DNA of 64,000 nt from positions 64,001-128,000 of the IMG/VR virus record IMGVR_UViG_3300045988_142974. One strand, written 5' to 3'. This document shows, piece after piece, positions 3,241 through 59,270 of this stretch. Position 1 is the stretch's first letter, and each line of letters begins with the position of its first letter. The stretch is from a virus. The notes under the pieces were generated by a model that saw nothing but the letters and a program-made list of their open reading frames with translations, had not been told where the DNA came from and did no database searches. A program made the position numbers and the translations under genes.

Positions 3241-4400
3241 TAGTTCAATTCCTCCATATCAATTATATTTTTATTTGTAGTAACACCGATTGTTTCAGCC
3301 ATTGTTTCGCACCAATCATTCACCATATATATAATATTCTCTAAATTTTTTCTTAAAGCTGTATTATCTTTTATAACAGGTAGAATTTTGGAATATCTTA
3401 ATGGCGATAGAGTAGTAGATAATAATTTTTCTATTTCATTTACAAGAGTTGTAATGTCTTTTGAAATCTCAATAACGTTATAATCTCCACTTGGATCTAA
3501 ATTCAAAGTTGCTATATCATTTTTCAATTTTATGTATTCTTCGGATTCTTTTTTATATGATTGCAAAAGACTTTCACTAGATTCATTAGAAGATTTTAAT
3601 GTACTATTCATAATTTCCAAGTTATTGATTTTCGTCTTTAAGTTAGAAATTTGGGACATAGCTTCTTTATATTTATTCTCTAAATCATAATCAGTTTTAT
3701 CAATTATTTTTTCTTTGGCAGATTGTGATTTTAGCTGATTTATCTCGTTGATATATTTTTGAACTTCATTTTTAGTGATTTTCTTAGTTGTGTCCATAGA
3801 AGATATAAGTTCAATTTGTTCATCTTCAGATAGAGAAGCAATTAAATCAGAAGCAACAGTTTTTGAAATTATTCCATCATCAAGAAGTTGTTTCATTGGT
3901 TCTGTAAGATTTCGTTCAATGGATAAAGCTCTTGTGAGATTTGTCTTTGAAGTTCCTAATTGTTTAGCAATTTCATCAAGAGATAATTTAGAATTCCCAA
4001 CTTGGGAATTCTTCTCACGACCATTTCCAATTTCACCATGTTTATATCCACACAGTTTTACATACTCAACTGCAACTTTTCTCTGCTTTTTATCATCATT
4101 TTTACTTCTTCCAAAATTAGCAGCAAGCAAAACCTTTAGTTTTTTATCTTCATCAATTAAATCTTCTCTGATTCTAATTGGTACTATTTTTATTCCAAGT
4201 TCTTTTGCAGCTTTATAACGCTGATGTCCTGAAATAATAGTCATATCAGGTGAAACAATAATTTCCGAAATAATACCTTCTTCTTTTATAGAATTTTTAA
4301 ATTCTTCATACTCAGAACCAGAAATATCATCAAAAAATTCGGTATTACGTGGATGCACCTTTAAAATATCAATAGACACATTCGTTATTTCTTTACCCAT
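3240..4400 (-). CDS. ParB/Srx N-terminal domain protein (ParB-like partition or nuclease protein, 386 aa)
   Basis: N-terminus IDILKVHPRNTEFFDDISGSEYEEFKNSIKEEGIISEIIVSPDMTIISGHQRYKAAKELG matches ParB box motifs (GHQR/GxxR). An HTH-like LDEIAKQLGTSKTNLTRAL follows, then a long coiled coil. Confidence 0.85.
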   Translation of the reverse strand: MGKEITNVSIDILKVHPRNTEFFDDISGSEYEEFKNSIKEEGIISEIIVSPDMTIISGHQRYKAAKELGIKIVPIRIREDLIDEDKKLKVLLAANFGRSKNDDKKQRKVAVEYVKLCGYKHGEIGNGREKNSQVGNSKLSLDEIAKQLGTSKTNLTRALSIERNLTEPMKQLLDDGIISKTVASDLIASLSEDEQIELISSMDTTKKITKNEVQKYINEINQLKSQSAKEKIIDKTDYDLENKYKEAMSQISNLKTKINNLEIMNSTLKSSNESSESLLQSYKKESEEYIKLKNDIATLNLDPSGDYNVIEISKDITTLVNEIEKLLSTTLSPLRYSKILPVIKDNTALRKNLENIIYMVNDWCETMAETIGVTTNKNIIDMEELN

Positions 4401-6304: not shown

Positions 6305-7423
6305 TTATATTATAGAAGCGTTGTATTTTTCTACAATCGTTCTAAGTTTTGTAACAAAATGAGAGATGTCAACAAAATAATTTGGATATGCTAATCTTAA
6401 TGTTTCAAATGATGAGGCAGATACAAGTACAACATTTTTGTCAGAATTTTGTTCAATCTGATCGTAAGCTTTTGTAGCATATTCAAGATTTTTAAATGGT
6501 CTAACTTGTACGGTCTTTTTGTTATAATCAAGCAACAATATATAATATAAATTCTTATTTTTCTGATTGAATTTTTTACTTGCATAATCAATAGATACAT
6601 TTAATCCGCTTAATGTAGATATTATGTTATTTTTATTATCAAGATAATTAATTTCTTTGATTAATTCATCCATCCAATCAGAAGTATTAGGGCATACTGG
6701 CATTTTTTCTTCAATAGCAAATATAGATGATACCAATTCAAAAAATCTAAGGATATCATAATCACCTTGACTAGATTTAAGATTACTGTTTGTATATATA
6801 CCCATCATTTCTACAGCAGTTGCCCACATATGTTGCAATTTTGTGCGGAATTGGACTTCTATAAACATATTTTTATTATAAGTATCTTTTTTGTCACTAT
6901 AGAATTGATATACCATATGATAAGATCTATATCCTGATTGTTTTGGGTTAGCAATATAATCATATTCACGTTTAAGTATATGCCTTATTCGAGAGTTTTT
7001 ATACTTGTCAACCGCTTCATATACTTGCTCTATAGTATCTACGATTACACGACAACCACCTAAATCTTGCATTTTATATAATTGCATTTCGGGAAATCTT
7101 TGAATCTTGCCGGTTATAGATTCTAAACGTTTTAATCTTTGAACAACTATAGCATTAGGATTCTTCTTTCTAAGGTTGCTACATATAATTTGTAAAGGAT
7201 ATGCGTGTGCAGCTCTCCAATTGTTTAATATGACTAGTGCTTTTTTACGTTCTTCAGACGTTGAAAATGGATCAGCTATTATTTTTCCTGCTTTATTAAT
7301 CTGATTGCCTGAATATTTAGGTACTTCCCATTTTTCTTTATTGTTACTTAACATAAATTCCTCCTCAATACTTTTGATAATGGTATCTAAGTCAAGTATA
7401 TCACTTTTTACAATAGTTTTCAT
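6305..7423 (-). CDS. RelA/SpoT-homologue (RSH) nucleotide pyrophosphokinase domain protein, single-domain synthetase with about 120-aa C-terminal extension (372 aa)
   Basis: Synthetase motifs read in the translation: WRAAHAYPL, RLKRLESITGKI, MQDLGGCRVIV, PKQSGYRSYHMV, IEVQFRTKLQHMWATAVE. AAAGGAA SD. Monocistronic, with its own terminator. Confidence 0.85.
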   Translation of the reverse strand: MKTIVKSDILDLDTIIKSIEEEFMLSNNKEKWEVPKYSGNQINKAGKIIADPFSTSEERKKALVILNNWRAAHAYPLQIICSNLRKKNPNAIVVQRLKRLESITGKIQRFPEMQLYKMQDLGGCRVIVDTIEQVYEAVDKYKNSRIRHILKREYDYIANPKQSGYRSYHMVYQFYSDKKDTYNKNMFIEVQFRTKLQHMWATAVEMMGIYTNSNLKSSQGDYDILRFFELVSSIFAIEEKMPVCPNTSDWMDELIKEINYLDNKNNIISTLSGLNVSIDYASKKFNQKNKNLYYILLLDYNKKTVQVRPFKNLEYATKAYDQIEQNSDKNVVLVSASSFETLRLAYPNYFVDISHFVTKLRTIVEKYNASII

Positions 7424-8025
7424 GATAAAATCATTCCTTTCTTTATTTTAATTATTATGACATTTATAATTATTTATTCTCGTTATTGTTTATGAGTTTT
7501 ATTTAATATTGTGCATTGCTGTCTTTTTGTATAAAGGTTAAGTAATTAATATTATTTTTCACCTGTTTTTATGGTAATTATGGGGAGTTTATTGAAATTT
7601 ATGTGTAGTTTTATCGTAGCCCTCTGTATTGTCTTAAATGTAAAATTTTTAATTGGAAAAGTGATATCGGTAAAATTACTTATTTATATAGAAGAAACGA
7701 GATTTTGGTATTGGATTTTGTGATGCAGGATTTTTAATTTTGGGGTTCAAAGATGGTTGAAAGTGGCTTGGTTAGTGGGTTTGAGCGATATGGGGTACGA
7801 TAAAGGGTTTGAGGGTAAAATTTGGGATTTTTGCTTGATTTTTAGTGGAAAATTAGAAATTATTTTGAAGTAAAATTTTGAAGTTGGTATGTAGATGAAT
7901 CAGCTATAGGCTCTGTTGCATTTCCAGTCCTATTAGTTAGTTTTTACTACCCCCAGTTAGCTATATTTCACGGTATTTGTACATTTTACCGTAGGATTTT
8001 AGAAGCTTCCTAGAGCGGTATTTAT

Positions 8026-8108
8026 ATAGTTTTGAAAACTATGTAATGTGGTTTTGATATTATTATTACATATAGTTTCAAGCTATGACATATCGTTTAT
8101 CATAGTTT
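8026..8108. repeat. ATAGTTT iteron-like repeats, including the 17-bp palindrome ATAGTTTTGAAAACTAT
   Basis: Palindrome at 8026-8042. ATAGTTT again at 8072-8078 and 8102-8108. AT-rich ORF-free DNA. Origin/operator candidate. Confidence 0.35.
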
Positions 8109-8247
8109 TATTCTATATACAATAATTCAAATAAAAACTTTGAAAAGTTATTGACAAATTCGATTTAATATAGTAAACTACAATTAATCAATAACAAGTT
8201 GATTTAATTGAATCAACAAAGAAGTTCTAAAAAACTTCAATAAGTTG

Positions 8248-8276
8248 TTGACAACTACACAAAAGTGTAGTACAAT
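8248..8276 (+). promoter_or_regulatory. Consensus sigma-70-type promoter TTGACA-17 nt-TACAAT
   Basis: TTGACA at 8248-8253, a 17-nt spacer containing IR CTACAC-AAAA-GTGTAG, then TACAAT at 8271-8276. Read directly. Confidence 0.6.
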
Positions 8277-8282
8277 ATAATT

Positions 8283-9090
8283 GTTCCAAAGGGGAACGAA
8301 AACACGGTACATAGTACCAACGATACTTTCCCTAAAGAGCAAAAAAGCGGTGAGGCGCTTCCAACACCAACACCGCAAAGGGGAATACTTAGATTCTCAA
8401 TCAGTCTAAGTATAACAAGCCAGTTCTGACTTGTCAATCCCCAACAAAATACCTTTTCCCATCCGTGGGAACTGGTACAACCGCAAAAGTCCATCCGTGG
8501 ACTTGAGCAAAAATTTGTACATTGACAAACAAATATTGAAAGCAAGTATCTGATAGATATTTGAAAGTTTACTCATACTGGTTTAAATCCGTATGTTACA
8601 AGTATGCTGATTTAAGAATGGGAAAAGTTCGGGCTTATAGCTTAGATTTTCGGGTTGAAAGTAGCTTAAATTTTAACTGGTGTGAGTGAATGAGTAGGAA
8701 AAGGGTAGGCGAAAACAAGTAAATATTTTATAAAATCCGTAAATCCGTTTCATTAGCGGATATTTCAGGCGGTAACAATTGAATTAGGCTAACTAATTAG
8801 CCTTAAAGCGGTTAGAGAGTACAGACAACGGGGACACTGTACAAATTATCATAGTCGGTGGGCTTGCATTCTGCGAGTCTGTTTAACAAATAAGTTTAGG
8901 CTATGAGTTTATCTCATTTGATAAACAACAAAACTATTGTAGTGGTTTTTGGTTTGAGAAAAACTTTTTACCACTTATCAACTAAAAAGGTGTAACACGG
9001 CTACAACTGGGCATTACATATAAATAAGTCCTAATGTTGTAAAGGTCTAAAGCCCTTGTAAACAGTGGATAGCACTATAACTATATTTGA
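8283..9090 (+). ncRNA. Candidate large structured noncoding RNA or long structured 5' leader (family not recognised)
   Basis: No credible ORF on either strand. Visibly higher G+C than the flanks. Dense hairpins: 8283-8297, 8306-8318, 8347-8376 nested in 8328-8385, 8388-8410, twin UCCG-loop hairpins 8457-8470 and 8489-8502, 8744-8761, 8786-8803, 8819-8842, 8941-8975. Starts just after the promoter at 8248-8276. Boundaries are approximate. Confidence 0.35.
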
Positions 9091-9109
9091 AATTTAAGGA
9101 GGTACTACT

Positions 9110-9733
9110 ATGAGTACAACAAAAAATAACAAAAAAGCAACTATTAATACGGCATCTGTAAAGGTGCAGTTTATGACTTCATCAAAGGACTTTACTGAAA
9201 CTATGGCTAAATTCTGGATTGCAATTAATCAGATGGCAGATAAAAAGCTTATTCTTCAAAACAACTTACGGATTAGCAAGGAATGGGCAGAACTCAAAAA
9301 GGATGATGCTGAGGCTCAGGCTATGTATTTAGCAGATGTTGAAAAGTATCAGGCAGAATTTGACGCATTTAAAGAAGAATACAATAAGCGTATTGACTCT
9401 TGCTATGAACTTTTAACAGATGAATTATACTCTGCTTACACTACATCAGAGGAAGAGTTTAAGAAGGCTATAAAAGAGTGGTTCTCTGCTCAGAAAATTG
9501 AAGCTACACCTACACTTATTAGCTTTATGACTGTAGCAGTAGGCTATAAAAACAGTAGCAATAAGCAGTTATTCAAGACTGGGAATGCTTTGTCTTATAA
9601 GGCTAAGACTACATTCAAAAATAGCTTTATGAGAGCACTTGCACAGCTTATGAAGGATAAGAATGCACTCAAAACAGATGCTTACAAATATACATACGTT
9701 GAACCAGAAAAGAAAAACAATAAGACAAACTAA
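9110..9733 (+). CDS. hypothetical protein (207 aa)
   Basis: ORF track. AAGGAGG SD. First gene of the long plus-strand array. Confidence 0.7.
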   Translation: MSTTKNNKKATINTASVKVQFMTSSKDFTETMAKFWIAINQMADKKLILQNNLRISKEWAELKKDDAEAQAMYLADVEKYQAEFDAFKEEYNKRIDSCYELLTDELYSAYTTSEEEFKKAIKEWFSAQKIEATPTLISFMTVAVGYKNSSNKQLFKTGNALSYKAKTTFKNSFMRALAQLMKDKNALKTDAYKYTYVEPEKKNNKTN

Positions 9734-9786
9734 CTTGTAAACACGCAACAAATCCGCTATACTATAAATAGGAAGGCGGTGAAAGG

Positions 9787-9978
9787 ATGGAAGAAATGAA
9801 TAACCAGGAAACAATTAAAATTTGTGTAGAAGAATTTTCACGCTTGCAGGAATGGATGGGAATGACAGAAAAGGAAACGCCTTTATATAAGTCAATGCAG
9901 GTGCGCTATAGAGATTTAAAAGTCATTCTATCTGCTTTAGGCGTGAATGTAACGGAACTTGATGTAATAAAAGAATAA
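9787..9978 (+). CDS. hypothetical protein (63 aa; start may be ATG 9796)
   Basis: ORF track. GAAAGGA SD is better spaced for 9796. Confidence 0.55.
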   Translation: MEEMNNQETIKICVEEFSRLQEWMGMTEKETPLYKSMQVRYRDLKVILSALGVNVTELDVIKE

Positions 9979-9987
9979 TTGCAGAGT

Positions 9988-10015
9988 GGAGGCAGGCTTT
10001 GAGCCTGCCTTTAAT
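9988..10015 (+). terminator. Hairpin GGCAGGC-TTTGA-GCCTGCC followed by T-rich tail
   Basis: Read directly after the stop at 9978. Confidence 0.55.
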
Positions 10016-10100
10016 GCACTATTTCAGTGTATGAAATAGCGGTCACAAGTCCGCAATTTAATTGTCGGTGGAGATAGTATCAAGAGCCGTGGAGGAAACT

Positions 10101-10520
10101 ATGACATCATTAATATTAAAGGGAATTGGAACAGCTATAAGATTTTCAAACGGAGTGTGCATATTAAACGCAACTCCACATCCACTCACGATGCAAGATA
10201 CAAACGGAGATCTTGTGACAGTTCCAACAAGTGTCCTCATTAATGCAAAGGCAGAAGAAAAAGCAGTAAATGACTTATTCGTAACAACTGTTTTTGTCGG
10301 TACGCCTGAGGGAAAAGAAATCATAAGGGACATAGAAGGAACCTATAGGGAAACCGGATGCGCTGATAGGCTTGTAATTGTCGGCAGTATTATTGCGTCT
10401 CAGGCATATCCAGGTAAAGTAGTTGGATTGTGTCCAGTTCCAGGGTTTGAACGTGTCACACCAAGCGAAAAGAGAATGCGCTGTGACAAGTTTACAGTAT
10501 TCACAGAAAATGAGGTATAA
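10101..10520 (+). CDS. hypothetical protein (139 aa from ATG 10101)
   Basis: Track ORF 10062..10520. The internal ATG 10101 has the GTGGAGGAAACT SD. The antisense track ORF 10058..10333 was rejected. Confidence 0.6.
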   Translation: MTSLILKGIGTAIRFSNGVCILNATPHPLTMQDTNGDLVTVPTSVLINAKAEEKAVNDLFVTTVFVGTPEGKEIIRDIEGTYRETGCADRLVIVGSIIASQAYPGKVVGLCPVPGFERVTPSEKRMRCDKFTVFTENEV

Positions 10521-11277: not shown

Positions 11278-11598
11278 ATGAAAAAAGAAAACTTAGATAG
11301 AATTAAAAGAGTAAGATTCTGCAACTATTCAGAATACGACTCAGAAAGATGCAACGATGGCGGTTGCTACGGTTTTTGGACAGACTACGACCGCCTTGAA
11401 AACGGAAAGTGGGAAGTCAGTTACGGCACAACGGCTGGTTTTGATTACTGCCCGGTGTGTGGCTCGTTCAACGATCACTACGACTATGACGAGGAAGAGT
11501 ATAGTTGCGGAGATTTTGAAACCGTAACGGAAACAGAACTGTTGGAAATCATCAATAACTTCACGGAAAATGAGGATGAGTATATAGAATACAAATAA
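11278..11598 (+). CDS. hypothetical acidic Cys-rich protein (106 aa)
   Basis: ORF track. AAGGAGGAAAG SD. CPVCG motif. Confidence 0.6.
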   Translation: MKKENLDRIKRVRFCNYSEYDSERCNDGGCYGFWTDYDRLENGKWEVSYGTTAGFDYCPVCGSFNDHYDYDEEEYSCGDFETVTETELLEIINNFTENEDEYIEYK

Positions 11599-14111: not shown

Positions 14112-15038
14112 ATGTGTAAAAGAGTTTATTTAAAGGCAAAGGAAGCAGAAATGGAAATGCAGGAAGCACGGAATGCGGAAGGATTCACAGGAAAGAATGA
14201 GAAGCTTTTGATTGCAAATATGGTAAAGGCAGCTAAGAATAATTCACGGATTGGTGATAAGTTGCTTATGGTAGTTGATCCAAAACAGATTCATATACCG
14301 GAGTGGCAGAGAAGAATCAAGCTTGCAAGAGCTTATTCAATAGGTAATAACTATAACTCGTACAAGTGGGATGAACCGAAGGTATTACTTTGTAATGGAT
14401 TACTTCTTTGCATTGACGGACAGCATAGGATATATGGAGCATTTAAGGCAAAAAAGGAAGATGTAGTTGTCGAAGTAATGGAGTGTAGTTTGAAAGAAGC
14501 GATTGACTTATTCCTCAGTCAGTCAACAGATCGTGCGAAGATGCAGCCAATGGATATATACCATGCGGCACTTGCGGCAGGTAAGCCAGAATATACTGCT
14601 TTGCGTGATATTTGTCATAAGCATAATGTAGCAGTAAAAGGAGATGATGAGACAGAGAATACAGTTGGTATATTAACTTCAATTTCTGATGGAACTGGAT
14701 TTACAAAGACAAATCCTGAGCTTCTTGATGCAATGCTTACTTTGCTTGGTAAACTTGGTTGGAACGGATATGCAGATTCATATAACGGAAAAGCATATAC
14801 TGCAAAGATTATTCGTGCTTTAAAGGCATTATATGCTTACTGTGAAGGCAGAACAGATGAAATGGAGACGGCGCTGATTAAAAACTGCAAGGGAACTGAA
14901 TTCTTTGTAGAGAACATTATGGATAAGACACAGGCACAGATTTTTGATTATCTGTCTAAGATTGTCCGTTACGAAATGGAAAGTCCATTCAGAAATAACA
15001 AGACAACAAAGAAAACTGTGAAAGCGAAAGTGATGTAA
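14112..15038 (+). CDS. ParB/Srx-fold protein with DGQHR motif (DndB/ParB-like nuclease family, 308 aa)
   Basis: IHIPEWQRR ... LLLCIDGQHRIYGAFKA matches the ParB-like/DGQHR core. AAGGAGGA SD. Confidence 0.65.
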   Translation: MCKRVYLKAKEAEMEMQEARNAEGFTGKNEKLLIANMVKAAKNNSRIGDKLLMVVDPKQIHIPEWQRRIKLARAYSIGNNYNSYKWDEPKVLLCNGLLLCIDGQHRIYGAFKAKKEDVVVEVMECSLKEAIDLFLSQSTDRAKMQPMDIYHAALAAGKPEYTALRDICHKHNVAVKGDDETENTVGILTSISDGTGFTKTNPELLDAMLTLLGKLGWNGYADSYNGKAYTAKIIRALKALYAYCEGRTDEMETALIKNCKGTEFFVENIMDKTQAQIFDYLSKIVRYEMESPFRNNKTTKKTVKAKVM

Positions 15039-36073: not shown

Positions 36074-36352
36074 GTGAATTATGAATTGAGCAGATATAAA
36101 AATGGAAATCCCAAATATGCAAGTAGATTTATATGTATGAGGTGTATGAGTGAAAATATGTTAGCTAGAGGCATTCAAAGGCAGCGACAAAGAGAACGAA
36201 AACACGTTAAAGACCTATATTGTTTGAGATGTGGTGAAATCACAAAATGCATTGAGGTTAGATTTTGTGACTCTTATGACGAGATTTTTGAAGTCGCAAA
36301 GATTAAAAGAGAGAATTATTACATAGATGATTATGAAAGAGAGGTTGATTAA
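36074..36352 (+). CDS. small basic Cys4 zinc-binding protein upstream of integrase (about 88-92 aa; start GTG 36074 or TTG 36086)
   Basis: ORF track. CMRC...CLRCG. The GAGGTGA SD is best spaced for TTG 36086. Its position suggests a possible recombination-directionality or regulatory role (inference only). Confidence 0.5.
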   Translation: MNYELSRYKNGNPKYASRFICMRCMSENMLARGIQRQRQRERKHVKDLYCLRCGEITKCIEVRFCDSYDEIFEVAKIKRENYYIDDYEREVD

Positions 36353-36353
36353 T

Positions 36354-37334
36354 ATGGCACAGACAAAAGATTATGCGACTAAGAAAAAGGGCAAAACAGA
36401 GGTGCAGCCATTTTGGAACATGTCAGACATTAAGAATGTTATTGAGTGGTTTGAGAAGAACGAGGAATGGGATGGATATTTGATTACACTACTTGAATTA
36501 TTACTTGGTAGACGAATCGGTGATACAGTGATGACGAAGTGGTCAGATCTGTATTACGAAAACGGAAATCGTAAAAATGAAATTGATACTATTGAAGAAC
36601 AGAAAACAGGTAAGATTACTAATCTTCCTATAAGTAATATGGTGTGGGAGGCTGTTGATAATTATTTGTCACACGTCAAAATCAATCCAATGGAGCATTA
36701 TGATGAATATATCTTTCAGTATCAGCCTAAGACAGATTGGATTAATAGATGTACGTTAGATATATATTCTGAAAATAGTATAAATACTTGGTGCAAGGCG
36801 TTAAATAAAGACTTTTCTGATAAGCGAAAGGAAAAGATATTTAATGATTTTCATAAGCAGAAAAAATATTCATCATTGGGAGATTACCTTTATTATGAAG
36901 TTGAATATAATGATGTGGTTAAATGGCAGACAGATGATTATAGAAAGAAATTAAAGAAAGCAGTTAAAGATGTTGGAATAACTTCACCTGTGTCGAGTCA
37001 CAGCCTCCGTAAGTCTTTCGGCTATTGGATACATAAGACACATCCATTTGATCCTGACTGTCTACTATCATTGCAGAAATTGTTCAATCATACTGATCTT
37101 CAGACAACAATGAATTATATTGGCTTAACAGAAGAGAAAAATCGACAGTTAATCAACGATCATGGAGAGTTTATCCATAACGTACTTGCAGGTAAAGGAG
37201 ATGAGATAGTTAAGAATATGCCAGTTATTTCTCTGAAATCTGATGATTTTGGAAAGATAATAAGAATGCTTACGGATGATGTAGATAAGTATCAAGCTGC
37301 AATTGATATGGCAAATGAATTAAGAGTAATGTAG
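36354..37334 (+). CDS. int: Tyrosine recombinase / phage integrase family protein (326 aa)
   Basis: Track ORF 36327..37334. ATG 36354 follows GGTTGATTAAT. Catalytic-domain motifs LLGRRIGD (Arg I), SHSLRKSFGYWI (His-x-x-Arg) and LFNHTDLQTTMNYIG (His ... Tyr). Confidence 0.85.
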   Translation: MAQTKDYATKKKGKTEVQPFWNMSDIKNVIEWFEKNEEWDGYLITLLELLLGRRIGDTVMTKWSDLYYENGNRKNEIDTIEEQKTGKITNLPISNMVWEAVDNYLSHVKINPMEHYDEYIFQYQPKTDWINRCTLDIYSENSINTWCKALNKDFSDKRKEKIFNDFHKQKKYSSLGDYLYYEVEYNDVVKWQTDDYRKKLKKAVKDVGITSPVSSHSLRKSFGYWIHKTHPFDPDCLLSLQKLFNHTDLQTTMNYIGLTEEKNRQLINDHGEFIHNVLAGKGDEIVKNMPVISLKSDDFGKIIRMLTDDVDKYQAAIDMANELRVM

Positions 37335-43076: not shown

Positions 43077-45677
43077 ATGAATGGATTGAGTAGTAAAGAA
43101 GTTCTCAAAAGTAGAGAGCTTCATGGAAGTAATAAGCTTCCTGAACCAAAGTTGGACAAGTGGTATGACTTCGCAAAGGAGGCATTAAGTGAGAAAATCA
43201 CAATGATTCTTATTGCAATTGCAGTATTGCAGTTATTCCTTGGAATCATGGGAGTAATGGATTTATCAGATCCAATTATGATTCTTGTTGTATTAGCAAT
43301 TGTAACATGTATTGCTGTTAAGACTGGACTTGGTGTTCAAAAATCAGCAGCAGAGTTGAGAGCCAAAACATCAGTCAGGTATTGTGACGTAATTCGTGAT
43401 GGCAAAGTTCAAACAATTAATAAGGATGAATTGGTAGTTGGTGATATTGTTTGTGTAGGAATGGGACAAGAGATTTTTGCAGATGGATATCTCATTGAAG
43501 GTAAGATTTCTGTAAACAATGCAGCCATTAATGGAGAAACAAAAGAGTGCAAGAAAACACCAATTGAAGGATATGTTCATAAGAAAACTACTTCAACAGC
43601 TGCTTATACGAATCAGAATTGCTTATTTGCTGGCACAACAGTAATGTCAGGCGAAGGAAAAATGATTGTTACTGATGTAGGTGTGAATACAGTAAATGGT
43701 GATACACTTGTTAAAATGCAAACACTTGAAGCACCAAAGACAGCACTTGATATTGCACTTGATAATCTGAGCGACTTCATTTCTAAGTGGGGAACAATCG
43801 CAGCCGTTATTACATTTGCGGTGCTTACAATTTCAGGAGTTGTACAGGTTGGATTTGGAGAATATTTTAGCGGTGGCGTTCTGAATATTATTCAGAAAAT
43901 CGCACAGAACTTCTCAGTAGCATTAACAATTATTGTAGCTGCTGTTCCCGAAGGATTGCCTCTTATTGTAAAACTTGTAACAAAACAGAATGTAAAGACA
44001 ATGGAGAAATTCAATATTCTTGCTAAGAATCCTGGTAAAATTCCAGAGTTAGCATATGTTGATATTATCTGTACTGATAAGACAGGTACTCTTACGACAG
44101 GTATTATGACTCCAAAGAAGATTATTGATGGCTTTGGTAATGATGTAAATAAGGATTCAGTTCTTTGGAATAATATCAAGGCAAACATTTCTTTAAATAA
44201 TAGTGCAACATTTGATTCAGAAAACAATATTACAGGTGGTAATTCAATTGATAGAGCAGTTCTTAGCCTTGTAAATCCTGAAACATATGCTGACATTCAG
44301 AAAAAATATCCAGTTAAGTTAAAGCAGGTATTTAATAGTAGCAATAAGTATTCAGCTTTTACGACAAAGGATGGAGTTACATACTATAAGGGCGCACCTG
44401 AGAAACTGATTGAGCATTGTACAAAAGTAATGGACTCAAGTGGTGAAATTGTAGAGAATAACGACAATGACACATTAAGTAATGCAATTACAGCAATGAC
44501 AAGCAATGCGATGAGATGCATTGCAGTTACAATGGCAGATGGTGATTTAGTAGAGAATGAAATACCAAATGACATGACATTCCTTGGAATTATTGGTGTT
44601 GTAGATCCTGTAAGAGATGAAGTACCGAGTGCAGTAAAAACAGCACATAAGGCTGGTATTCAAGTTATTGAAATTACAGGCGATTGTATTGAGACAGCAG
44701 TTGCAGTTGCTACAGAGTGTGGAATTTACAAAGATGGAGATTTAGCACTTACAAATGATGAATTTGAAGCGATGTCAGCTGATGAAGTAAAGAGTATAAT
44801 TCCTCGATTGAGAGTTATTTCAAGATGCTCACCAAACACAAAACTCAGACTTGTCACATTAGCACAAGAAATTGGAAAGTCAGTTGCAATGACAGGTGAT
44901 GGTGTAAATGATAGTCCTGCTTTAAAGAGAGCTGATGTTGGTTTTGGTATGCAAGGTGGATCAGATGTTGCAAAAGAAGCTTCAGACATTGTATTGACAG
45001 ATGATAATTTTGCAAGCGTAGTAAAGGCAGTAGAACTTGGAAGAACATTTATGCACAATATTATGATGTTCCTTGAATTCCAGTTACCTATCAATATTTC
45101 ACTTCTAATTCTCAGCGTTATCTATCCAATGATTGCAACGGGCGCATTACTCGCATCGGTTCAGATTCTGATTGTAAATATCATTATGGATTCCCTTAAT
45201 TCACTATCATTCGGTGGCGAACCTCCAAAGGATGAATACATGACAGAGAAACCTATTAAAAAGGGTTCTGGTTTATTCATCAGAGGAGCAAAGAAACGTA
45301 TTGCAATAAGTACAGTAGCTTTTATTGCACTTTATGGAATTATTACATTCAGTCCTATTGCAAATATGTTTGCATCTGAAACAGAAGCTATGACAGCGAG
45401 ATTCGCATTGTTATGCTTTATGGCAGTATTTAATGGATTTAATATTCGTACAGAACACATTAATTTATTCAATGGTATTGGGAAGAACAAACTGTTCTCA
45501 GCCATTGCAATCGGAATTTTTGTAATGACTTTTGCTCTTTGCAACTTTGCAGAAAATCTTATTAAGGTTACAGCTTTAGATTTCAAACATTGGGTAGTAG
45601 TTGTAATTCTAGCGTTTATGGTTATTCCAATTGATCTTATTAGAAAGATTATTGAGAAGAAAAGAGAGAATAAGTAA
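43077..45677 (+). CDS. P-type (P2-like) cation-transporting ATPase, probable Ca2+ pump (866 aa)
   Basis: ICTDKTGTLT (phosphorylation motif DKTGT), AAVPEGLPLIV (the PEGLP TM4 motif typical of Ca2+/P2 pumps), TGD, MTGDGVNDSPALKRADVG (GDGxND hinge), and multiple TM segments. Confidence 0.9.
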   Translation: MNGLSSKEVLKSRELHGSNKLPEPKLDKWYDFAKEALSEKITMILIAIAVLQLFLGIMGVMDLSDPIMILVVLAIVTCIAVKTGLGVQKSAAELRAKTSVRYCDVIRDGKVQTINKDELVVGDIVCVGMGQEIFADGYLIEGKISVNNAAINGETKECKKTPIEGYVHKKTTSTAAYTNQNCLFAGTTVMSGEGKMIVTDVGVNTVNGDTLVKMQTLEAPKTALDIALDNLSDFISKWGTIAAVITFAVLTISGVVQVGFGEYFSGGVLNIIQKIAQNFSVALTIIVAAVPEGLPLIVKLVTKQNVKTMEKFNILAKNPGKIPELAYVDIICTDKTGTLTTGIMTPKKIIDGFGNDVNKDSVLWNNIKANISLNNSATFDSENNITGGNSIDRAVLSLVNPETYADIQKKYPVKLKQVFNSSNKYSAFTTKDGVTYYKGAPEKLIEHCTKVMDSSGEIVENNDNDTLSNAITAMTSNAMRCIAVTMADGDLVENEIPNDMTFLGIIGVVDPVRDEVPSAVKTAHKAGIQVIEITGDCIETAVAVATECGIYKDGDLALTNDEFEAMSADEVKSIIPRLRVISRCSPNTKLRLVTLAQEIGKSVAMTGDGVNDSPALKRADVGFGMQGGSDVAKEASDIVLTDDNFASVVKAVELGRTFMHNIMMFLEFQLPINISLLILSVIYPMIATGALLASVQILIVNIIMDSLNSLSFGGEPPKDEYMTEKPIKKGSGLFIRGAKKRIAISTVAFIALYGIITFSPIANMFASETEAMTARFALLCFMAVFNGFNIRTEHINLFNGIGKNKLFSAIAIGIFVMTFALCNFAENLIKVTALDFKHWVVVVILAFMVIPIDLIRKIIEKKRENK

Positions 45678-51290: not shown

Positions 51291-51839
51291 ATGACGAATA
51301 AAGAGCAAAATAATTTAAGCAAATACATAGCATTAATTCTTAGACACAGACCTGATGTTATTGGTATCGCATTAGATGAACATGGTTGGGCTAACGTGTC
51401 AGATCTATTAAAAGGAATCAATAAAACTCAGACGATTACAATGAAAATGCTTGAAAAAATTGTAGAAGAAGATTCTAAACAGAGATATTCATTTAATCGA
51501 GAGAAGACGCTTATAAGAGCAAATCAAGGTCATTCTATAAAAGTTGATGTAGAATTGAAAGAGTGTATGCCACCAGATATTTTATATCATGGAACGGGTG
51601 TCAAATATTGCTCTTCAATCAATAAACAAGGGTTAATATCCAAGAGTCGTTTATATGTCCATCTATCAAAAGATATTGAAACAGCAACAAATGTTGGCAG
51701 TAGACATGGAGAACCGTTTATTTATAAGGTTCGAGCAAAAGATATGTATAATGATGGATATAAATTCTTTTTATCTCAAAATGGGGTATGGCTTACAAAA
51801 GAAGTACCAATCTGTTATTTAGATGCGTTCTCGAAATAA
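51291..51839 (+). CDS. kptA: RNA 2'-phosphotransferase Tpt1/KptA family (NAD+-dependent)
   Basis: Track ORF 51270..51839. ATG 51291. [48 protein letters not shown] and RLYVHLS match the Tpt1 R-H-R-R catalytic-tetrad context. Confidence 0.85.
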
Positions 51840-51910
51840 GGACAACAAGGACATTCCAAACTTCAAGGAACGAGTTGAAACAGATATATAAAATTTTGGA
51901 GGTTAAGACA

Positions 51911-52939
51911 ATGACAATTGAACAGATTAAGGACAAATTAAAATCAAAAGAGTATGACTTCCTGAGAACAGATAAGAATTTGGGTAACAATATCATTATC
52001 TTAACTCTTGGTGGAAGTTATGCATATGGAACAAATAATGAGGGTAGCGATTTAGATATTCGTGGTTGTGCTTTGAATAGCAAGATGCAGATTCTTACAA
52101 ATGAGAATTTTGAGCAGTTTGTAAACAATGAGACAGACACAACCATTTATGCCTTTAATAAGTTAGTAGCTTTGTTAAGTAATACAAACCCTAACACAAT
52201 AGAAATGCTTGGAAATAAGCCAGAACACTATTTCTATGTATCTCCTATTGGTCAGGAACTTATTGACAATGCGCATTTATTTTTATCAAAGAGAGCTTGT
52301 CATTCGTTTGGCGGTTATGCTAATCAGCAATTATACAGATTAAATCAGAAAGCTGCACATCAGATGTCGCAGTCTGAATTAGAGAAACATATTCTAAAGA
52401 CTCTTGAATTTATGCAGACTGACTTCACAAAGAAATATACACCATATGAAGATGATTCTATGAAATTATATATTGATAAAGCTGTGCAGGAAGGCTACGA
52501 TACAGAAATCTTTATGGATATAAATCTTCATCATTACCCATTAAGAGATTATTGTTCTATGTGGAATGAGCTTCAGAATACAGTTCGTCAATATGGAAAA
52601 ATTGGTAAGAGAAATGAAAAAGCAATTGAACATGGTAAAATTGCTAAACATTCAATGCATCTTATTCGACTGTATATGATGTGCTTAGATATTCTTGAAA
52701 AAGAAAGAATAATTACATACAGAGAAGATGAGCATAATTTACTAATGGATATTCGCAATGGCAAGTATTTGGATAGCAACGATCAGCCAATCCCAGAATT
52801 CTTTGAAATGGTAAATGATTATGAAAAGAGATTAGATTATGCGAAGAAAAACACAAGTCTTCCTGATAATCCTAATTATAAGGCTATCAATGAATTTGTT
52901 GCTAGTGTAAATGAAAGGGTGGTAAAAGGTGAAATCTAA
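51911..52939 (+). CDS. Pol-beta-superfamily nucleotidyltransferase, RlaP/pfam10127-like (RNA-repair-associated) (342 aa)
   Basis: Internal ATG of track ORF 51788..52939, after a TTGGAGG SD. ILTLGGSYAYGTNNEGSDLDIRG is the GS...D.D NTase motif. The family assignment is from recollection of the RlaP signature. Confidence 0.6.
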   Translation: MTIEQIKDKLKSKEYDFLRTDKNLGNNIIILTLGGSYAYGTNNEGSDLDIRGCALNSKMQILTNENFEQFVNNETDTTIYAFNKLVALLSNTNPNTIEMLGNKPEHYFYVSPIGQELIDNAHLFLSKRACHSFGGYANQQLYRLNQKAAHQMSQSELEKHILKTLEFMQTDFTKKYTPYEDDSMKLYIDKAVQEGYDTEIFMDINLHHYPLRDYCSMWNELQNTVRQYGKIGKRNEKAIEHGKIAKHSMHLIRLYMMCLDILEKERIITYREDEHNLLMDIRNGKYLDSNDQPIPEFFEMVNDYEKRLDYAKKNTSLPDNPNYKAINEFVASVNERVVKGEI

Positions 52940-54296
52940 TTTGAAGATTGAAATTCCATCTGGTGCAAATGAAATTATCCATAGTCTACAAAATAATGGA
53001 TATGAAGCTTTCTTAGTCGGAGGATGTGTAAGAGATAGTATTCTTGGCAGACCAATTCACGATTATGACATTACAACTTCTGCCACGCCAGATGAGATGA
53101 TGGAAGTATTCAAGGACAAGAGAATTATTGAAACTGGATTACAGCATGGAACTATCACAATTTTAATTGACGGTGAAGGATATGAATGTACCACTTACAG
53201 AATTGACGGTAATTACTCAGATAGTCGTAGACCTGATAGCGTAACATTTACACGAAATCTTAAAGAAGATTTAAAGCGTAGAGATTTTACAATTAATGCA
53301 ATGGCTTACAATGATGAAGTTGGTCTTATAGATCCGTTTAATGGTATGGAAGATATTAAATACCACAAGATTAGATGTGTTGGCAGAGCAGAAGACAGAT
53401 TTTCAGAAGATGCATTAAGAATTTTACGTGCCATTCGGTTTGCCTCACAGTTGGGATTTGTCCTTGAACCTGATACAGATTGGCATATTTCTAAAATGTA
53501 TAAGAATTTGGAGAATATATCTATTGAAAGGATCAATAGTGAATTTTGTAAAATTGCTGCATCGAGTGATTTCTGTGTACAAATGGTCTTATATCACGAA
53601 GTATTCTCGTTGTTCATTCCTGAAATTAAAGATATGTTTGGTTTTCAACAGAATAATCCATATCACATGTATGATGTATGGAATCATACCGTACATGCAA
53701 TAGAATATTGTGAATCCGATGATTTAGTAACAAGATTGGCAGTATTCTTTCACGATTTTGGTAAGCCACACTGTTATCAAGATGGAGAAGATGGTATCAG
53801 ACACTTTAAAGGTCATGGAAGAGTAAGTGCTGATATGACCAATGAGATTATGAAACGTCTTAGATTTGACAATGATACAAGAGAAAAGGTCATTGAATTA
53901 GTCTATTATCATGATGCTACTTTTGAGGTGGGAAAGAAATATGTCAAGAGATGGCTTAATAAAATTGGAGAAGAACAGTTCAGAAGGTTATTAAATGTTC
54001 GTAGAGCTGATATTAAAGCACAAGCAGACATGGCTCAGGAAACAAGATTACAGAAAATTGATAACATCGAATATATTTTAGAAGAAGTCTTACAGGATGA
54101 TGAATGTTTTTCTCTAAAGGATTTAGCAGTTAATGGAAAAGATGTAATGGATACAATGCTCATTAAAAGTGGAAAAGAAGTTGGCTACTGGCTCAATGAA
54201 ATCTTAACTCGTGTAATAGATGGGAGATTAAAAAATGATAAAGAGGATCTTATTTATTGGATGACTGGTATTACAGATGGTTGGATAGAATATTAA
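52929..54296 (+). CDS. cca: CCA-adding enzyme / tRNA nucleotidyltransferase (class II) with HD domain
   Basis: FLVGGCVRDSILGRPIHDYDITT, RRDFTINAMAY, LRAIRFASQLGF, FFHDFGKPHC (HD). GTG start overlapping the upstream gene's end. Confidence 0.85.
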   Translation: MKSNLKIEIPSGANEIIHSLQNNGYEAFLVGGCVRDSILGRPIHDYDITTSATPDEMMEVFKDKRIIETGLQHGTITILIDGEGYECTTYRIDGNYSDSRRPDSVTFTRNLKEDLKRRDFTINAMAYNDEVGLIDPFNGMEDIKYHKIRCVGRAEDRFSEDALRILRAIRFASQLGFVLEPDTDWHISKMYKNLENISIERINSEFCKIAASSDFCVQMVLYHEVFSLFIPEIKDMFGFQQNNPYHMYDVWNHTVHAIEYCESDDLVTRLAVFFHDFGKPHCYQDGEDGIRHFKGHGRVSADMTNEIMKRLRFDNDTREKVIELVYYHDATFEVGKKYVKRWLNKIGEEQFRRLLNVRRADIKAQADMAQETRLQKIDNIEYILEEVLQDDECFSLKDLAVNGKDVMDTMLIKSGKEVGYWLNEILTRVIDGRLKNDKEDLIYWMTGITDGWIEY

Positions 54297-54306
54297 CGGA
54301 GGTAAT

Positions 54307-55047
54307 ATGTACGAAAAATTAAAAGAATATATAAAAGAATCAAATAATATTGTATTCTTTGGTGGAGCAGGTGTATCAACTGAAAGTGGTATTCCTGATT
54401 TTCGTTCCAAGGATGGATTATATAATCAGCATGACGTTCAGTTTGATAAATACGAACCAGAATATCTTTTGAGTAGAGAATGTTTATATAATAATCCAAA
54501 GATATTTTATGAGTTCTATCGTCAGAAGATGGATACAAGAAATGTTGAACCAAACGTTACTCATAAGGTGCTTGCTAAGATGGAAGAAATAGGTAAGTTG
54601 AAAGCTATTGTAACACAGAATATTGATGGACTTCATCAGAAAGCTGGAAGTAAGAATGTCTTTGAGATTCATGGAACTACTCAGAAGAATTATTGTAGTA
54701 AGTGTAAGATGAAATATCATTCTGATTTCTTGTTTAACACTAAAGATGCTATTCCAAAGTGTGAATGTGGTGGGCTGATTAGACCTGATGTGACTTTATA
54801 CGGAGAGAATCTTCCTAACGAAGCTGTAAATGGAGCAATCAGAGCTATTCGAGATGCTGAAATGTTGATTATTGGTGGCACTTCATTAAAAGTTTATCCA
54901 GCAGCTCATTATATTTCATATTTTAGTGGTAGACATTTGGTTGTTATCAATATGGAGAAAATTCAAGTGTTGTTGAATGAGGATACAGATCTGATGATTG
55001 TTGATTCGTTAGGTAATGTGTTCAGTGAAATTGATAAATGGATGTGA
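54307..55047 (+). CDS. Sir2-family NAD+-dependent protein deacylase/ADP-ribosyltransferase
   Basis: FFGGAGVSTESGIPDFRS, TQNIDGLH, EIHG, Zn module CSKC...CECGG, IGGTSLKVYPAA. Confidence 0.9.
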   Translation: MYEKLKEYIKESNNIVFFGGAGVSTESGIPDFRSKDGLYNQHDVQFDKYEPEYLLSRECLYNNPKIFYEFYRQKMDTRNVEPNVTHKVLAKMEEIGKLKAIVTQNIDGLHQKAGSKNVFEIHGTTQKNYCSKCKMKYHSDFLFNTKDAIPKCECGGLIRPDVTLYGENLPNEAVNGAIRAIRDAEMLIIGGTSLKVYPAAHYISYFSGRHLVVINMEKIQVLLNEDTDLMIVDSLGNVFSEIDKWM

Positions 55048-58487: not shown

Positions 58488-59270
58488 ATGGCATATATAA
58501 AACAATATTGGCAGAATAAAGAACAAAGAGCGACAATTGCTCGTGAACACACAAAAGAGATGCGGAATAAATATGGTCGTTGTATTCAAACTTCAATTTT
58601 GGGTACAAAAATTTATGATACAAATTCATTTAATAGGGATTTTGAAGAGAATATCGAAGATAAAGATACCAAGATTATTGTAGAGGATATTGATAGTGTA
58701 GGTGCTGTAATGAAATACGGCAATCCAAGTACAGCAGTTCTTAATTTTTCTTCATATAAAAATCCAGGTGGAATGTTTTTAAATGGTAGTAAGGCACAGG
58801 AAGAGTGCTTATGTCACGAATCATTCTTATACAATGTGTTGAGTCAGTTTGTATTAAAGTTTTATGATTGGAATAATCGACATAAGAATAAGGCTTTATA
58901 TTTGAATAGAGGATTATTTTCTCCCGGTGTTTGGTTCTTTAGAGAGAATAGCCATGTAGAGTGTAGTGTTATTACTTGTGCTGCTCCAAATAAGTCGGCT
59001 GCTCAGAAATATCAGAACGTGTCAGACGAAGAGAATACTAAAGCATTAAGAAGTCGAATTAAATTTGTTCTTAATATGGCGAAAGACAACAATGTGAGCA
59101 CTCTTATTTTAGGAGCTTATGGATGTGGAGTATTTGGGCAAGACGCAACAGAAGTAGCGAATATATTTAAAGAATATTTAACTACTACTCATAAATGCTT
59201 CGATACTGTTGTATTTGCTGTTCCAAATGGCAGAGATGGTAACTATGAGAAGTTTGTAAAAGTATTTTAA
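58488..59270 (+). CDS. Macro-domain protein of the TIGR02452/DUF2263 (microbial PARG-like) type
   Basis: AVLNFSSYKNPGGMFLNGSKAQEECLCHESFLY and LILGAYGCGVFGQDATEVA match the family signature (LNFAS..PGGG...AQEE ... GAxGCGxF). Confidence 0.8.
   Translation: MAYIKQYWQNKEQRATIAREHTKEMRNKYGRCIQTSILGTKIYDTNSFNRDFEENIEDKDTKIIVEDIDSVGAVMKYGNPSTAVLNFSSYKNPGGMFLNGSKAQEECLCHESFLYNVLSQFVLKFYDWNNRHKNKALYLNRGLFSPGVWFFRENSHVECSVITCAAPNKSAAQKYQNVSDEENTKALRSRIKFVLNMAKDNNVSTLILGAYGCGVFGQDATEVANIFKEYLTTTHKCFDTVVFAVPNGRDGNYEKFVKVF

Follow-up and report, generated by a model that had tools for sequence, protein, structure and literature searches.

The 64,000-nucleotide (nt) stretch of viral DNA analyzed here (the window) comprises positions 64,001 to 128,000 of IMG/VR virus record IMGVR_UViG_3300045988_142974. 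A preliminary description suggested that an interval at positions 7424–9109 of the window gives rise to a large structured noncoding RNA (ncRNA) or, alternatively, to a long regulatory leader for the gene that begins at 9110. The latter suggestion fits the anatomy of the locus best. The reading that we favor, with a little better than even confidence, is that the right-hand part of the interval specifies a cis-regulatory leader of an early operon. This leader would be under antisense control, would carry twin hairpins that recruit a factor, and would be cut from the mRNA by a twister ribozyme (Table 1). Its anatomy and conservation, the covariation of its stems, and the strand on which its structure is selected can be observed directly.

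The interval is heterogeneous and does not represent one RNA over its whole length, because the 820 nt to the left of the promoter lie outside the RNA candidate. Positions 7424–8247 contain promoter and operator DNA together with an unstructured conserved block, termed block (a), and positions 8277–9109 form an ∼830-nt structured, untranslated leader. The region had been described as free of open reading frames (ORFs), and this holds: there is no ORF of 70 or more amino acids (aa) in 7424–9109 except two on the minus strand (8184..8378 and 8255..8545) that had already been dismissed. Recoding of TGA, TAG, or TAA within the interval likewise reveals no convincing hidden gene. An ORF-free gap of 1.4–3.2 kilobases (kb) is kept upstream of the 207-aa gene (9110–9733) in all relatives of this locus.

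The sharing of individual parts was mapped by blastn and nhmmer against 77 related loci, which are given L numbers below. The outcome is a mosaic. Block (a), at ∼7657–7954, is present in 39 loci, and the twin hairpins with the box that follows them, at ∼8436–8541, are present in every locus with the 207-aa gene. The segment 8560–9109 is common to one subgroup (L001, L014/16, L017, and L151, and partly L019 and L125) and is replaced elsewhere by at least three unrelated modules. Family-wide conservation in the leader is limited to the twin hairpins and the short box, and the surrounding segments are exchangeable modules.

The alignments indicate that the twin hairpins are a real, new, and family-specific RNA motif. 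Two hairpins with UCCG loops had been noticed at 8457–8470 and 8489–8502. Both are present, and each proves to be the inner part of a longer two-tier hairpin. Each hairpin is built from a 4-base-pair (bp) outer stem, an internal loop, and a 5–7-bp inner stem capped by a UCCG loop, whose C-A/U-G closing step is invariant (core CAUCCGUG). In an alignment of 24 distinct sequences (A2), 91% of the cells are paired and 12 of the 20 pairs show compensatory changes, whereas only 26–50% of the cells pair in slid controls. RNAalifold independently gives the identical fold. The outer stem of hairpin 1 occurs as UAYC/GRUA, UUUGUAAA/UUUACAAA, or AUAC/GUAU, and therefore a simple DNA palindrome is excluded. 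There are about 18 G·U cells compared to 4 A·C cells in this alignment, which shows that the plus strand is the selected strand. In L125, the most divergent sequence that is still matched (69% protein identity), both loops read UCUG. A change made in concert is as expected if one partner reads both loops.

The distribution of the motif follows that of the 207-aa gene. Wherever this gene is present with enough sequence upstream of it, twin hairpins are found as well, even in L154 with only 45% protein identity. A covariance model of the motif (R1) gives one match in the window (93.6 bits) and scores 56.7–85.8 bits with L154–L156, which were outside the set used to build it. The same model finds no twin hairpins in 28 related loci that have block (a) without the 207-aa gene. 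Two pattern scans of IMG/VR and a covariance-model search uncovered no example outside this phage family, within which the motif occurs once per genome, and there is no Rfam match to it. The hairpins were also considered as terminators and rejected, as they lack a plus-strand U-run and their minus-strand U-runs are weak and nonconserved. A separate observation concerns L105 (IMGVR_UViG_3300033233_000160), an unrelated viral contig that carries repeated long hairpins of the form GTTTGTCTCA-TCCG-TGAGACAAAC at ∼3860–3950. The loop and closing pairs are as in the twin hairpins, and the covariance model score is merely 16.8 bits.

The box that directly follows the twin hairpins reads TTGACAAACAAATA in the window and has the family consensus TTGAYAAAYAAATA. 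It is kept in most lineages including L154, with departures from consensus in L006, L019, and L155/156, and a pattern scan shows that it is confined to this phage family. The box resembles a −35 element (TTGACA at 8522), but this interpretation was rejected because relatives have no consistent −10 partner. The hexamer AUCCGU that is displayed in both twin-hairpin loops recurs three times farther downstream in single-stranded positions, and these extra copies are only partly conserved among relatives. Five of the nine plus-strand copies of ATCCGT in the 64 kb fall within 8461–8748, making it the top-enriched hexamer (41-fold). An alternative leader module seen in L015 (3590–3670), L019 (3140–3230), L125 (290–400), and L154 (1825–1910) has two direct repeats of GAGGGCTACCAG and two of GGTAATAAGTG. 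These repeats lie directly behind the twin-hairpin box and could represent further binding sites.

The 3′ end of the leader is formed by what its predicted structure indicates is a divergent new member of the twister class, type P1. The structure was obtained by transferring the L125 alignment to positions 8989–9076, and it has the layout GGUG-UAA-CACG-GC-[P3 9002-9041]-AAG-GUCUAAAGCC-CUU-GUAAA-C(A)GUG-GAUAG-CACU. Stem P1 (8989–8992/9073–9076) has four pairs, P2 (8996–8999/9063–9067) has four pairs and one bulged base, P3 spans 9002–9041, and P4 (9042–9057) has three pairs. The two pseudoknots are T1 (9000–9001/9052–9053), which joins loop L4 to the P2–P3 junction, and T2 (9047–9049/9070–9072), which joins L4 to the internal loop between P1 and P2 on its 3′ strand. 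All 21 pairs, including those of both pseudoknots, are 100% paired in six distinct sequences, compared to 21–48% in slid controls. T1 is invariably GC/GC. For T2, the window and L014 have CUA/UAG, and L017, L125, L147, and L151 have UCA/UGA, whereas the consensus is CCC/GGG; two of its three pairs show compensatory changes. Twister ribozymes have about ten strongly conserved nucleotides in L1 and L4, among them the A on the 3′ side of the scissile bond, and these are present (UAA, the GC junction, G-U-C..A-A-G-C-C, UAAA, and G-A..G), and the four positions that deviate from the consensus are the covarying T2 partners.

Rfam reports the twister-P1 match in the window only weakly (9028–9073, 17.4 bits, E 0.24–3.9), because a P3 insertion of ∼40 nt causes the model to misalign it. 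The homologous twister of L125, with its short P3, reaches 45.8 bits (E 1e-7, RF03160). The gathering threshold of RF03160 (67.2 bits) is reached by neither of the two. An unrelated type-P1 twister at the equivalent position in L018 scores 49.3 bits. Cleavage of the window RNA is expected between U8993 and A8994, which is 116 nt before the start codon. A canonical type-P5 twister follows the 207-aa gene and a 63-aa ORF and is conserved in L001, L017, L128–130, L149, L151, L153, and L155. No further twister, hammerhead, or T-loop cores were found in the 64 kb beyond these two twisters. At ∼1410–1470 of L154, just past the upstream gene, CUGAUGAG..CGAAAC has the look of a hammerhead core. It is absent from the Rfam output at E ≤ 1, and a stem III pairing tried by hand is a misfit.

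Ten relatives (L002, L004, L005, L006, L011–13, L134, L135, and L150) have a covarying tRNA-like structure in place of the upstream twister. It consists of an acceptor-like stem of 8–10 bp, a hairpin with a AAGAAUUAAGG-type loop (AAGAAYUAWGG across relatives), and a T arm (GGGUUCGAUUCCC), and it lacks a D arm. Examples lie at 1060–1150 in L004 and at 3840–3935 in L006. ARAGORN predicts no tRNA or tmRNA in the window and calls only one among the relatives, a tRNA-Lys(ttt) at 3835–3921 of L015. Because two unrelated RNA-cutting devices share one site, the separation of the leader from the mRNA appears to be maintained by selection.

The remainder of the leader is also structured. All of the stems listed in the preliminary description are present in minimum-free-energy folds, with compensatory changes backing most of the hairpins, and its proposal that a long, hairpin-dense plus-strand RNA extends downstream from the promoter is backed by covariation and by strand asymmetry. 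Compared to shuffled sequences, the folds of 8278–8520 and 8278–9109 have z-scores of −6.1 and −3.7. The segment 8630–8910 folds with −70.6 kcal/mol (z −2.5) on the plus strand, in contrast to −35.1 kcal/mol (z +0.8) on the minus strand. A 13-bp long-range helix closes a multi-hairpin domain here, which holds the previously listed hairpins 8744–8761, 8786–8803, and 8819–8842 plus one at 8863–8885 with a conserved AUUCU loop. For six sequences of the subgroup that shares the module of the window, RNAalifold predicts 114 pairs, 14 of which have compensatory changes. This evidence supports, but does not settle, plus-strand structure in the rest of the leader. The sequence AATATTTTATA at 8723–8733 is kept in every type of leader module (those of the window, L004, L006, and L009). 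Read on the minus strand, it offers a −10-like TAAAAT with weak −35 partners.

A promoter had been noted at 8248–8276, and its match to the consensus (TTGACA-17-TACAAT, 11 of 12 positions) stands. Promoter-like hits in the region as a whole are no more frequent than in shuffled sequences (17 versus 14.2 ± 4.4). A plus-strand promoter of equal strength is present at the equivalent position in nearly all relatives examined, the exceptions being L138 and L154, where the best match is 8 of 12. The spacer of this promoter, P(+), contains a perfect palindrome, and a further palindrome lies just upstream at 8222–8237. Both are probably repressor operators, given that several relatives (L002, L006, and L018) have palindromes of differing sequence at this place. 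Relatives have one to three strong plus-strand promoters, several of them with a spacer palindrome, and carry two or three promoter-like sites of this strand in tandem. The sequence that follows the promoter had been called unusually rich in G+C. Its G+C content is indeed 0.45 at 8300–8499 compared to 0.21–0.33 in the preceding 900 nt, although the peak is merely local, with coding DNA at 10300–10499 and 11300–11499 reaching 0.46–0.47.

A second predicted promoter, P(−), points leftward toward P(+). In every relative, a minus-strand promoter with a 17-nt spacer is found 19–48 nt to the left of the twin hairpins. The predicted transcript of P(−) starts near 8402 and folds as a free 26-nt 5′ tail plus a terminator hairpin, which has its stem at 8376..8347 and its U-run (UUUUUU) at 8346..8341. 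Terminator-like sites in the region number four, all of them on the minus strand. No plus-strand intrinsic terminator is predicted anywhere in 7000–10200, including the space between promoter and gene. In relatives, the elements are found in the order plus-strand promoter or promoters, leader of ∼60–130 nt, A-run plus hairpin (equivalent to the minus-strand terminator), and minus-strand promoter. Scans detect equivalents of the minus-strand terminator in about half of the sequence types (the L006/L014/L017, L138, L154, and L155/156 groups). The hairpin of the L004 type was missed by the script and was flagged by a consensus scan in L011 only, and its layout was recognized by eye. None was found in L015 by any scan. 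The terminator stem is a minus-strand feature because in L006 and L014 it is lengthened by several G·U pairs, the plus-strand equivalents of which are A·C mismatches.

The region of overlap between the two predicted transcripts is hypervariable. Sequence homologs of 8278–8436 are found only in L001, L044, and L128–130, and relatives have at least five unrelated sequence types of the sense/antisense segment. The architecture is nevertheless retained. Such a fixed layout on changing sequence is typical of the specificity determinants of countertranscript systems. Since the segment differs completely between related phages, it is probably a specificity or immunity determinant.

These features can be joined into one scheme, in which transcription, antisense action, factor binding, and cleavage are what we infer from the sequences. 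A strong sigma-A-type promoter with a palindromic operator in its spacer would produce the highly structured untranslated leader. The convergent promoter would yield an antisense RNA complementary to leader positions ∼+65 to +125, and this RNA could throttle rightward expression by RNA pairing, by promoter interference, or by both. The twin hairpins, together with the three downstream AUCCGU copies, would serve as a docking platform for a trans-acting factor. This factor is probably a protein, and it could be the one that the co-inherited 207-aa gene encodes. The type-P1 twister would then cut to leave an ∼720-nt leader with a 2′,3′-cyclic phosphate and an mRNA with a 5′-OH, and the second twister would trim the 3′ side. 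In favor of the scheme are the gene context; the geometry of P(+), P(−), and the terminator, which about half of the sequence types keep by scan and the L004 type by eye; the joint occurrence of the twin hairpins and the 207-aa gene; the plus-strand structure of the leader; the exchange of one processing device for another at one site; and the lack of a predicted plus-strand terminator between promoter and gene.

Several points weigh against this scheme. The promoters, the terminator, the antisense RNA, and the cleavage event are all predictions. The window twister is far below the gathering score and differs at four normally conserved positions, although these covary, and the covariation counts for both the twister and the leader come from just six sequences that are fairly close to one another. 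Antisense attenuation in its classic form requires that the sense leader contain a terminator, and the analysis predicts none there. No recognizable RNA-binding fold was found in the 207-aa protein. Finally, if the leader is simply cut off, the presence of ∼450 nt of conserved structure separating the hairpins from the ribozyme is left unexplained, which favors an RNA that stands alone.

In that alternative, the leader itself is the product: an ∼720-nt structured ncRNA (∼8283–8993) is freed by twister cleavage, or in relatives by RNase P/Z acting on the tRNA-like element, and acts in trans as a scaffold, a sponge, or the core of a ribonucleoprotein. The 207-aa gene would merely be co-promoted or would encode a partner. 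The occupation of one site just upstream of the ribosome-binding site (RBS) by two unrelated processing devices is consistent with this view, as is extensive conserved structure far from coding sequence. Five AUCCGU copies within 290 nt resemble an RNA with multiple binding sites. GOLLD and ROOL RNAs often adjoin tRNAs, and the tRNA-like element at the 3′ end of the leader in relatives is reminiscent of this. On the other hand, the ∼450-nt middle module is swapped among at least four unrelated versions in close relatives, which is unusual for a conserved function in trans, and only ∼90 nt (twin hairpins and box) are family-wide. The preliminary description had named GOLLD, ROOL, and HEARO as candidate classes and had listed raiA among the families to search, and such an assignment fails: neither these nor another large Rfam family match 7300–10200 at E ≤ 10, and Rfam covariance searches of the whole window at gathering score and of eight relatives at E ≤ 1 are negative for GOLLD, ROOL, HEARO, raiA, and OLE. 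Apart from the twisters, Rfam matches are at chance level (RT-6 with E 0.28; CRISPR-DR65 and SNORA12 with E > 4). We regard an independent RNA as unlikely, yet as a serious contender. A similarly tentative proposal is that the ∼720-nt RNA between promoter and cleavage site founds a new class of modular large phage ncRNA, built around a twin-hairpin AUCCGU platform that recruits a factor.

Other explanations are considerably less probable. The plus-strand RNA could be a primer precursor or the leader of a rep mRNA in a ColE1-like or Inc18-like plasmid prophage, with the antisense RNA as the copy-number controller and block (a) as part of the origin. The geometry is like that of countertranscript copy control, in which the 5′ part of a long structured RNA is faced by a short antisense RNA that has a 5′ tail followed by a terminator hairpin. 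Moreover, the element encodes ParB and a Rep-like protein, its antisense segment is hypervariable like incompatibility determinants, and block (a) is strongly G-skewed with short direct repeats. This idea appears improbable given that the downstream gene has no similarity to replication initiators, the Rep-like gene is 6 kb away on the opposite strand, the sense RNA has no predicted attenuator terminator, and block (a) is upstream rather than downstream of the promoter. In addition, the 2′,3′-cyclic phosphate end made by a twister cannot prime DNA synthesis. The twin inverted repeats might instead be operator or activator sites in double-stranded DNA, with centers ∼61 and 93 bp upstream of where P(−) would start transcription. 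Such sites would suit their placement with respect to P(−), as well as the otherwise invariant 8-bp core, in which the two copies change together. However, the outer stems, which lie beyond noncomplementary internal loops, are swapped for unrelated yet complementary sequences, and G·U intermediates are common; together these are expected of RNA pairing and not of a protein-bound duplex. The core is also nonpalindromic and has equal orientation in both copies. Because the outer stems covary, this reading was rejected and is given very little credence. The least probable alternative is that the minus strand is functional as a CsrA-titrating RNA or a CsrA-regulated transcript. On that strand the loops read CACGGAUG, which we take to match the CsrA/RsmE consensus (CANGGANG in a hairpin loop). 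Both loops fit this consensus, five ANGGA sites (including three more ACGGAU copies) lie within 290 nt, and there is a weak minus-strand promoter-like site (8753..8725) with the conserved AATATTTTATA. Yet the wobble pairs point to the plus strand (∼18 G·U there, versus 4 that would be G·U on the minus strand), the surrounding domain is stable on the plus strand only, GGA is changed to AGA in both loops of L125, and two of the five copies are inside the spacer of the sole candidate minus-strand promoter. A minus-strand CsrA sponge was rejected on this strand evidence.

Table 1. Features of the control region and of the adjoining 207-aa gene (positions in the window; minus-strand features are given from 5′ to 3′ end)
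Feature	Position	Strand	Description
Block (a)	7657..7954		Conserved, G/T-skewed, unstructured element; most widely conserved part of the gap
Islands of block (a)	7657–7675; 7785–7803; 7826–7842; 7880–7907; 7937–7954		Five, nearly invariant: AAAAGTGATATCGGTAAAA; GCGATATGGGGTACGATAA; GATTTTTGCTTGATTTT; GTTGGTATGTAGATGAATCAGCTAT; TTAGTTTTTACTACCCCC
Upstream promoter-like site	8151..8179	+	TTGACA-17-TAAACT; 10/12 matches
P(+), predicted promoter	8248..8276	+	TTGACA-17-TACAAT; perfect palindrome ACTACAC-AAAA-GTGTAGT (8254–8271) within spacer
Variable 5′ leader segment	8277..8449	+	Hairpins 8283–8297, 8306–8318, 8328–8385 (enclosing 8347–8376), 8388–8410, and 8414–8436; putative antisense target
Predicted cis-antisense RNA	8402..8340	−	∼60 nt; 26-nt unstructured 5′ tail, then intrinsic terminator 8376..8341
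P(−), predicted promoter	8437..8409	−	TTGACA-17-TG-TATACT; −35 8437..8432, −10 8414..8409; 11/12 matches plus extended −10; convergent, leftward
Twin-hairpin motif	8450..8508	+	Hairpin 1 8450–8477; hairpin 2 8483–8508
Conserved box	8522..8535	+	TTGACAAACAAATA; family consensus TTGAYAAAYAAATA
Extra AUCCGU copies	8587–8592; 8735–8740; 8743–8748	+	Single-stranded; hexamer as in twin-hairpin loops
Multi-hairpin domain	8637..8904	+	Closed by 13-bp long-range helix 8637–8649/8892–8904
Hairpin	8939..8975	+	Covarying stem GUAGUGG, GUAGCUG, or GUAGUAG with matching partners; conserved loop UUUUUGGUUUGAG..ACUUUUUA
Type-P1 twister, predicted	8989..9076	+	Enlarged P3; forms 3′ end of leader
RBS and gene	9096..9733	+	AAGGAGG 9096–9102; 207-aa gene 9110–9733; always accompanies twin hairpins
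Type-P5 twister	9980..10054	+	49.3 bits (gathering threshold 37.6); 8 nt before next ORF

Block (a) lies ∼500 nt to the left of the promoters, whichever gene is located farther left, and a divergent copy is present in the distant loci L154–L156. Its islands are parted by variable G/T-rich spacers, and its GC skew reaches +0.82. Two CGATA repeats are 12 nt apart at 7785–7803, and an inverted TATCG is found at 7665. A structured RNA was considered and rejected, with RNAalifold giving 0 pairs in 34 sequences and the fold being no more stable than that of shuffled sequences (z = −0.15). A terminated small RNA was also rejected, as the 3′ end lacks a consistent hairpin. Block (a) probably acts as DNA, in the form of a regulator-binding array, a partition site, or an origin.

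The interval is flanked by a minus-strand gene (6305–7423) and by the 207-aa gene, which is the first of a long rightward array. The left neighbors encode a ParB-like protein, a Rep-like protein, and, at 6305–7423, a 372-aa protein with a RelA_SpoT domain. The last of these matches PADLOC PDC-S33 (3.7e-120) and PHROG 4773, and is 33% identical to a RelA/SpoT protein of Salmonella phage SJ46. From these matches, it looks like a phage-borne homolog of a defense or toxin-type alarmone synthetase that is encoded beside the control region. On the right side are small early-type genes, including one for a Cro/C1-type helix-turn-helix (HTH) protein. A repressor gene facing an early operon is the usual arrangement, and in L155 the left neighbor of the gap, a 296-aa HTH_3/HTH_19 (CI-like) protein, is placed likewise. 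The best reading of 7424–9109, as judged from these gene assignments, is that of a control region between a leftward accessory and maintenance block (RelA_SpoT-type defense candidate, ParB, and Rep-like protein) and a rightward early operon. The relatives are IMG/VR viral contigs of 80–196 kb, human-gut metagenome contigs, and one metagenome-assembled genome of an uncultured Clostridiales bacterium. A blastn search with the 1.7 kb found no match in annotated phage and plasmid records. Taken together, the sequences indicate that the source element is a roughly 150-kb phage or phage-plasmid of human-gut Clostridiales.

Clostridium sp. AM45-5 has an annotated homolog of the 207-aa protein. The protein has no match in Pfam, PHROGs, NCBIfam, PADLOC, or sequences of the Protein Data Bank (PDB), and tblastn finds none among phages. 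Its AlphaFold model is mainly helical with one short β-hairpin (predicted local distance difference test score, or pLDDT, of 77), and Foldseek searches of PDB and BFVD with this model return nothing better than E 0.2. Other genes of the window encode a P-type cation ATPase (43077–45677), an integrase-like protein (36327–37334), a second ParB-like protein (14112–15038), and a DNA methylase. Farther to the right, plus-strand genes at 51788–55047 and 58488–59270 encode an RlaP nucleotidyltransferase, a PolyA_pol/CCA-adding-like enzyme with an HD domain, Sir2, and a microbial PARG. This cluster suggests RNA repair combined with metabolism of nicotinamide adenine dinucleotide (NAD) and ADP-ribose.

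RNAs with 5′-OH and 2′,3′-cyclic-phosphate ends are substrates of RtcB-type ligases. The ∼1-kb segment between the predicted cleavage sites of the two twisters (8994 to ∼10016) would carry such ends. A bolder suggestion is that ligation of this segment could yield a naturally circular mRNA that encodes the 207-aa protein. The RNA-repair-type genes for RlaP and the CCA-adding-like enzyme are carried by the same phage.

Twister and hammerhead ribozymes of bacteria cluster near phage genes, and their biological purpose is still unknown (PMC6765202). The present locus offers a concrete, testable case: a single small early gene with a twister on either side. The interchange of the upstream twister with a tRNA-like processing signal in sister phages argues that the exact cut site is the selected function. 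The locus also adds a strongly covarying twin-hairpin motif that is found in no RNA database, and it illustrates that Rfam thresholds miss twisters with long P3 insertions. The hypervariable sense/antisense pair could be an immunity or incompatibility determinant of an abundant group of Clostridiales phages or phage-plasmids of the human gut. If the released leader is stable, it would be added to the few large structured RNAs known from phages.

Bacterial twisters sit among phage genes and are thought to process polycistronic transcripts (PMC6765202), and the architecture that defines them has been reviewed (PMC5408937). Like RF03160 (clan CL00120), the window RNA at 8989–9076 has P1, P2, P4, the optional P3, and both pseudoknots. 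It also shares the U-A cleavage dinucleotide followed by A, the GC junction, the L4 loop G-U-C-N-N-A-A-G-C-C, and UAAA. It differs from this family in the ∼40-nt insertion in P3 and in its T2 pairs (CUA/UAG or UCA/UGA instead of CCC/GGG). The pairing of a type-P1 with a type-P5 twister across one small gene is a further difference. The likeness to GOLLD, ROOL, and HEARO RNAs is more general: a phage of Firmicutes carries several hundred nucleotides of conserved multi-hairpin structure, with tRNA-like neighbors in some relatives. In contrast to those RNAs, the window RNA is mostly modular, is nonhomologous between close relatives, and is a ribozyme-bounded leader directly upstream of a gene.

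The sense/antisense arrangement can be compared to countertranscript systems such as pIP501 RNAIII, pT181 RNAI, ColE1 RNA I/RNA II, and enterococcal prgQ/Anti-Q, and to the face-to-face promoter switches of coliphages 186 and P2. The window shares with them a strong promoter and a convergent one, here ∼125 nt apart, and a short predicted antisense RNA with a single-stranded 5′ tail and its own terminator. The target lies in the 5′ portion of a long and structured leader, and the overlap is hypervariable between relatives. Unlike in those systems, no attenuator terminator is predicted in the sense leader, and the gene is not recognizable as a replication or repressor gene. Direct translational control is unlikely because the RBS is 700 nt from the antisense target.

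Cis-acting antitermination hairpins, such as the two stem-loops of HK022 put and lambda nut boxB, are the closest parallel for the twin hairpins, which lie 174–232 nt past the −10 element, a distance similar to that in relatives. In both cases two adjacent stem-loops are found within ∼200 nt of an early promoter, are conserved amid variable flanks, and have sequence-invariant loops, as a recognition element would be expected to have. The sequences are unlike, the hosts here are Gram-positive, and no intrinsic terminator that would need to be overridden is predicted downstream to 10200. The window hairpins also nearly duplicate each other and share the same loop, a hint that the binder is dimeric or repeated. 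The resemblance to put and nut elements is one of position only. When considered together, the twin-hairpin motif, the modular leader, and the ribozyme-bracketed gene are a variant of known regulatory themes that is new as a combination.

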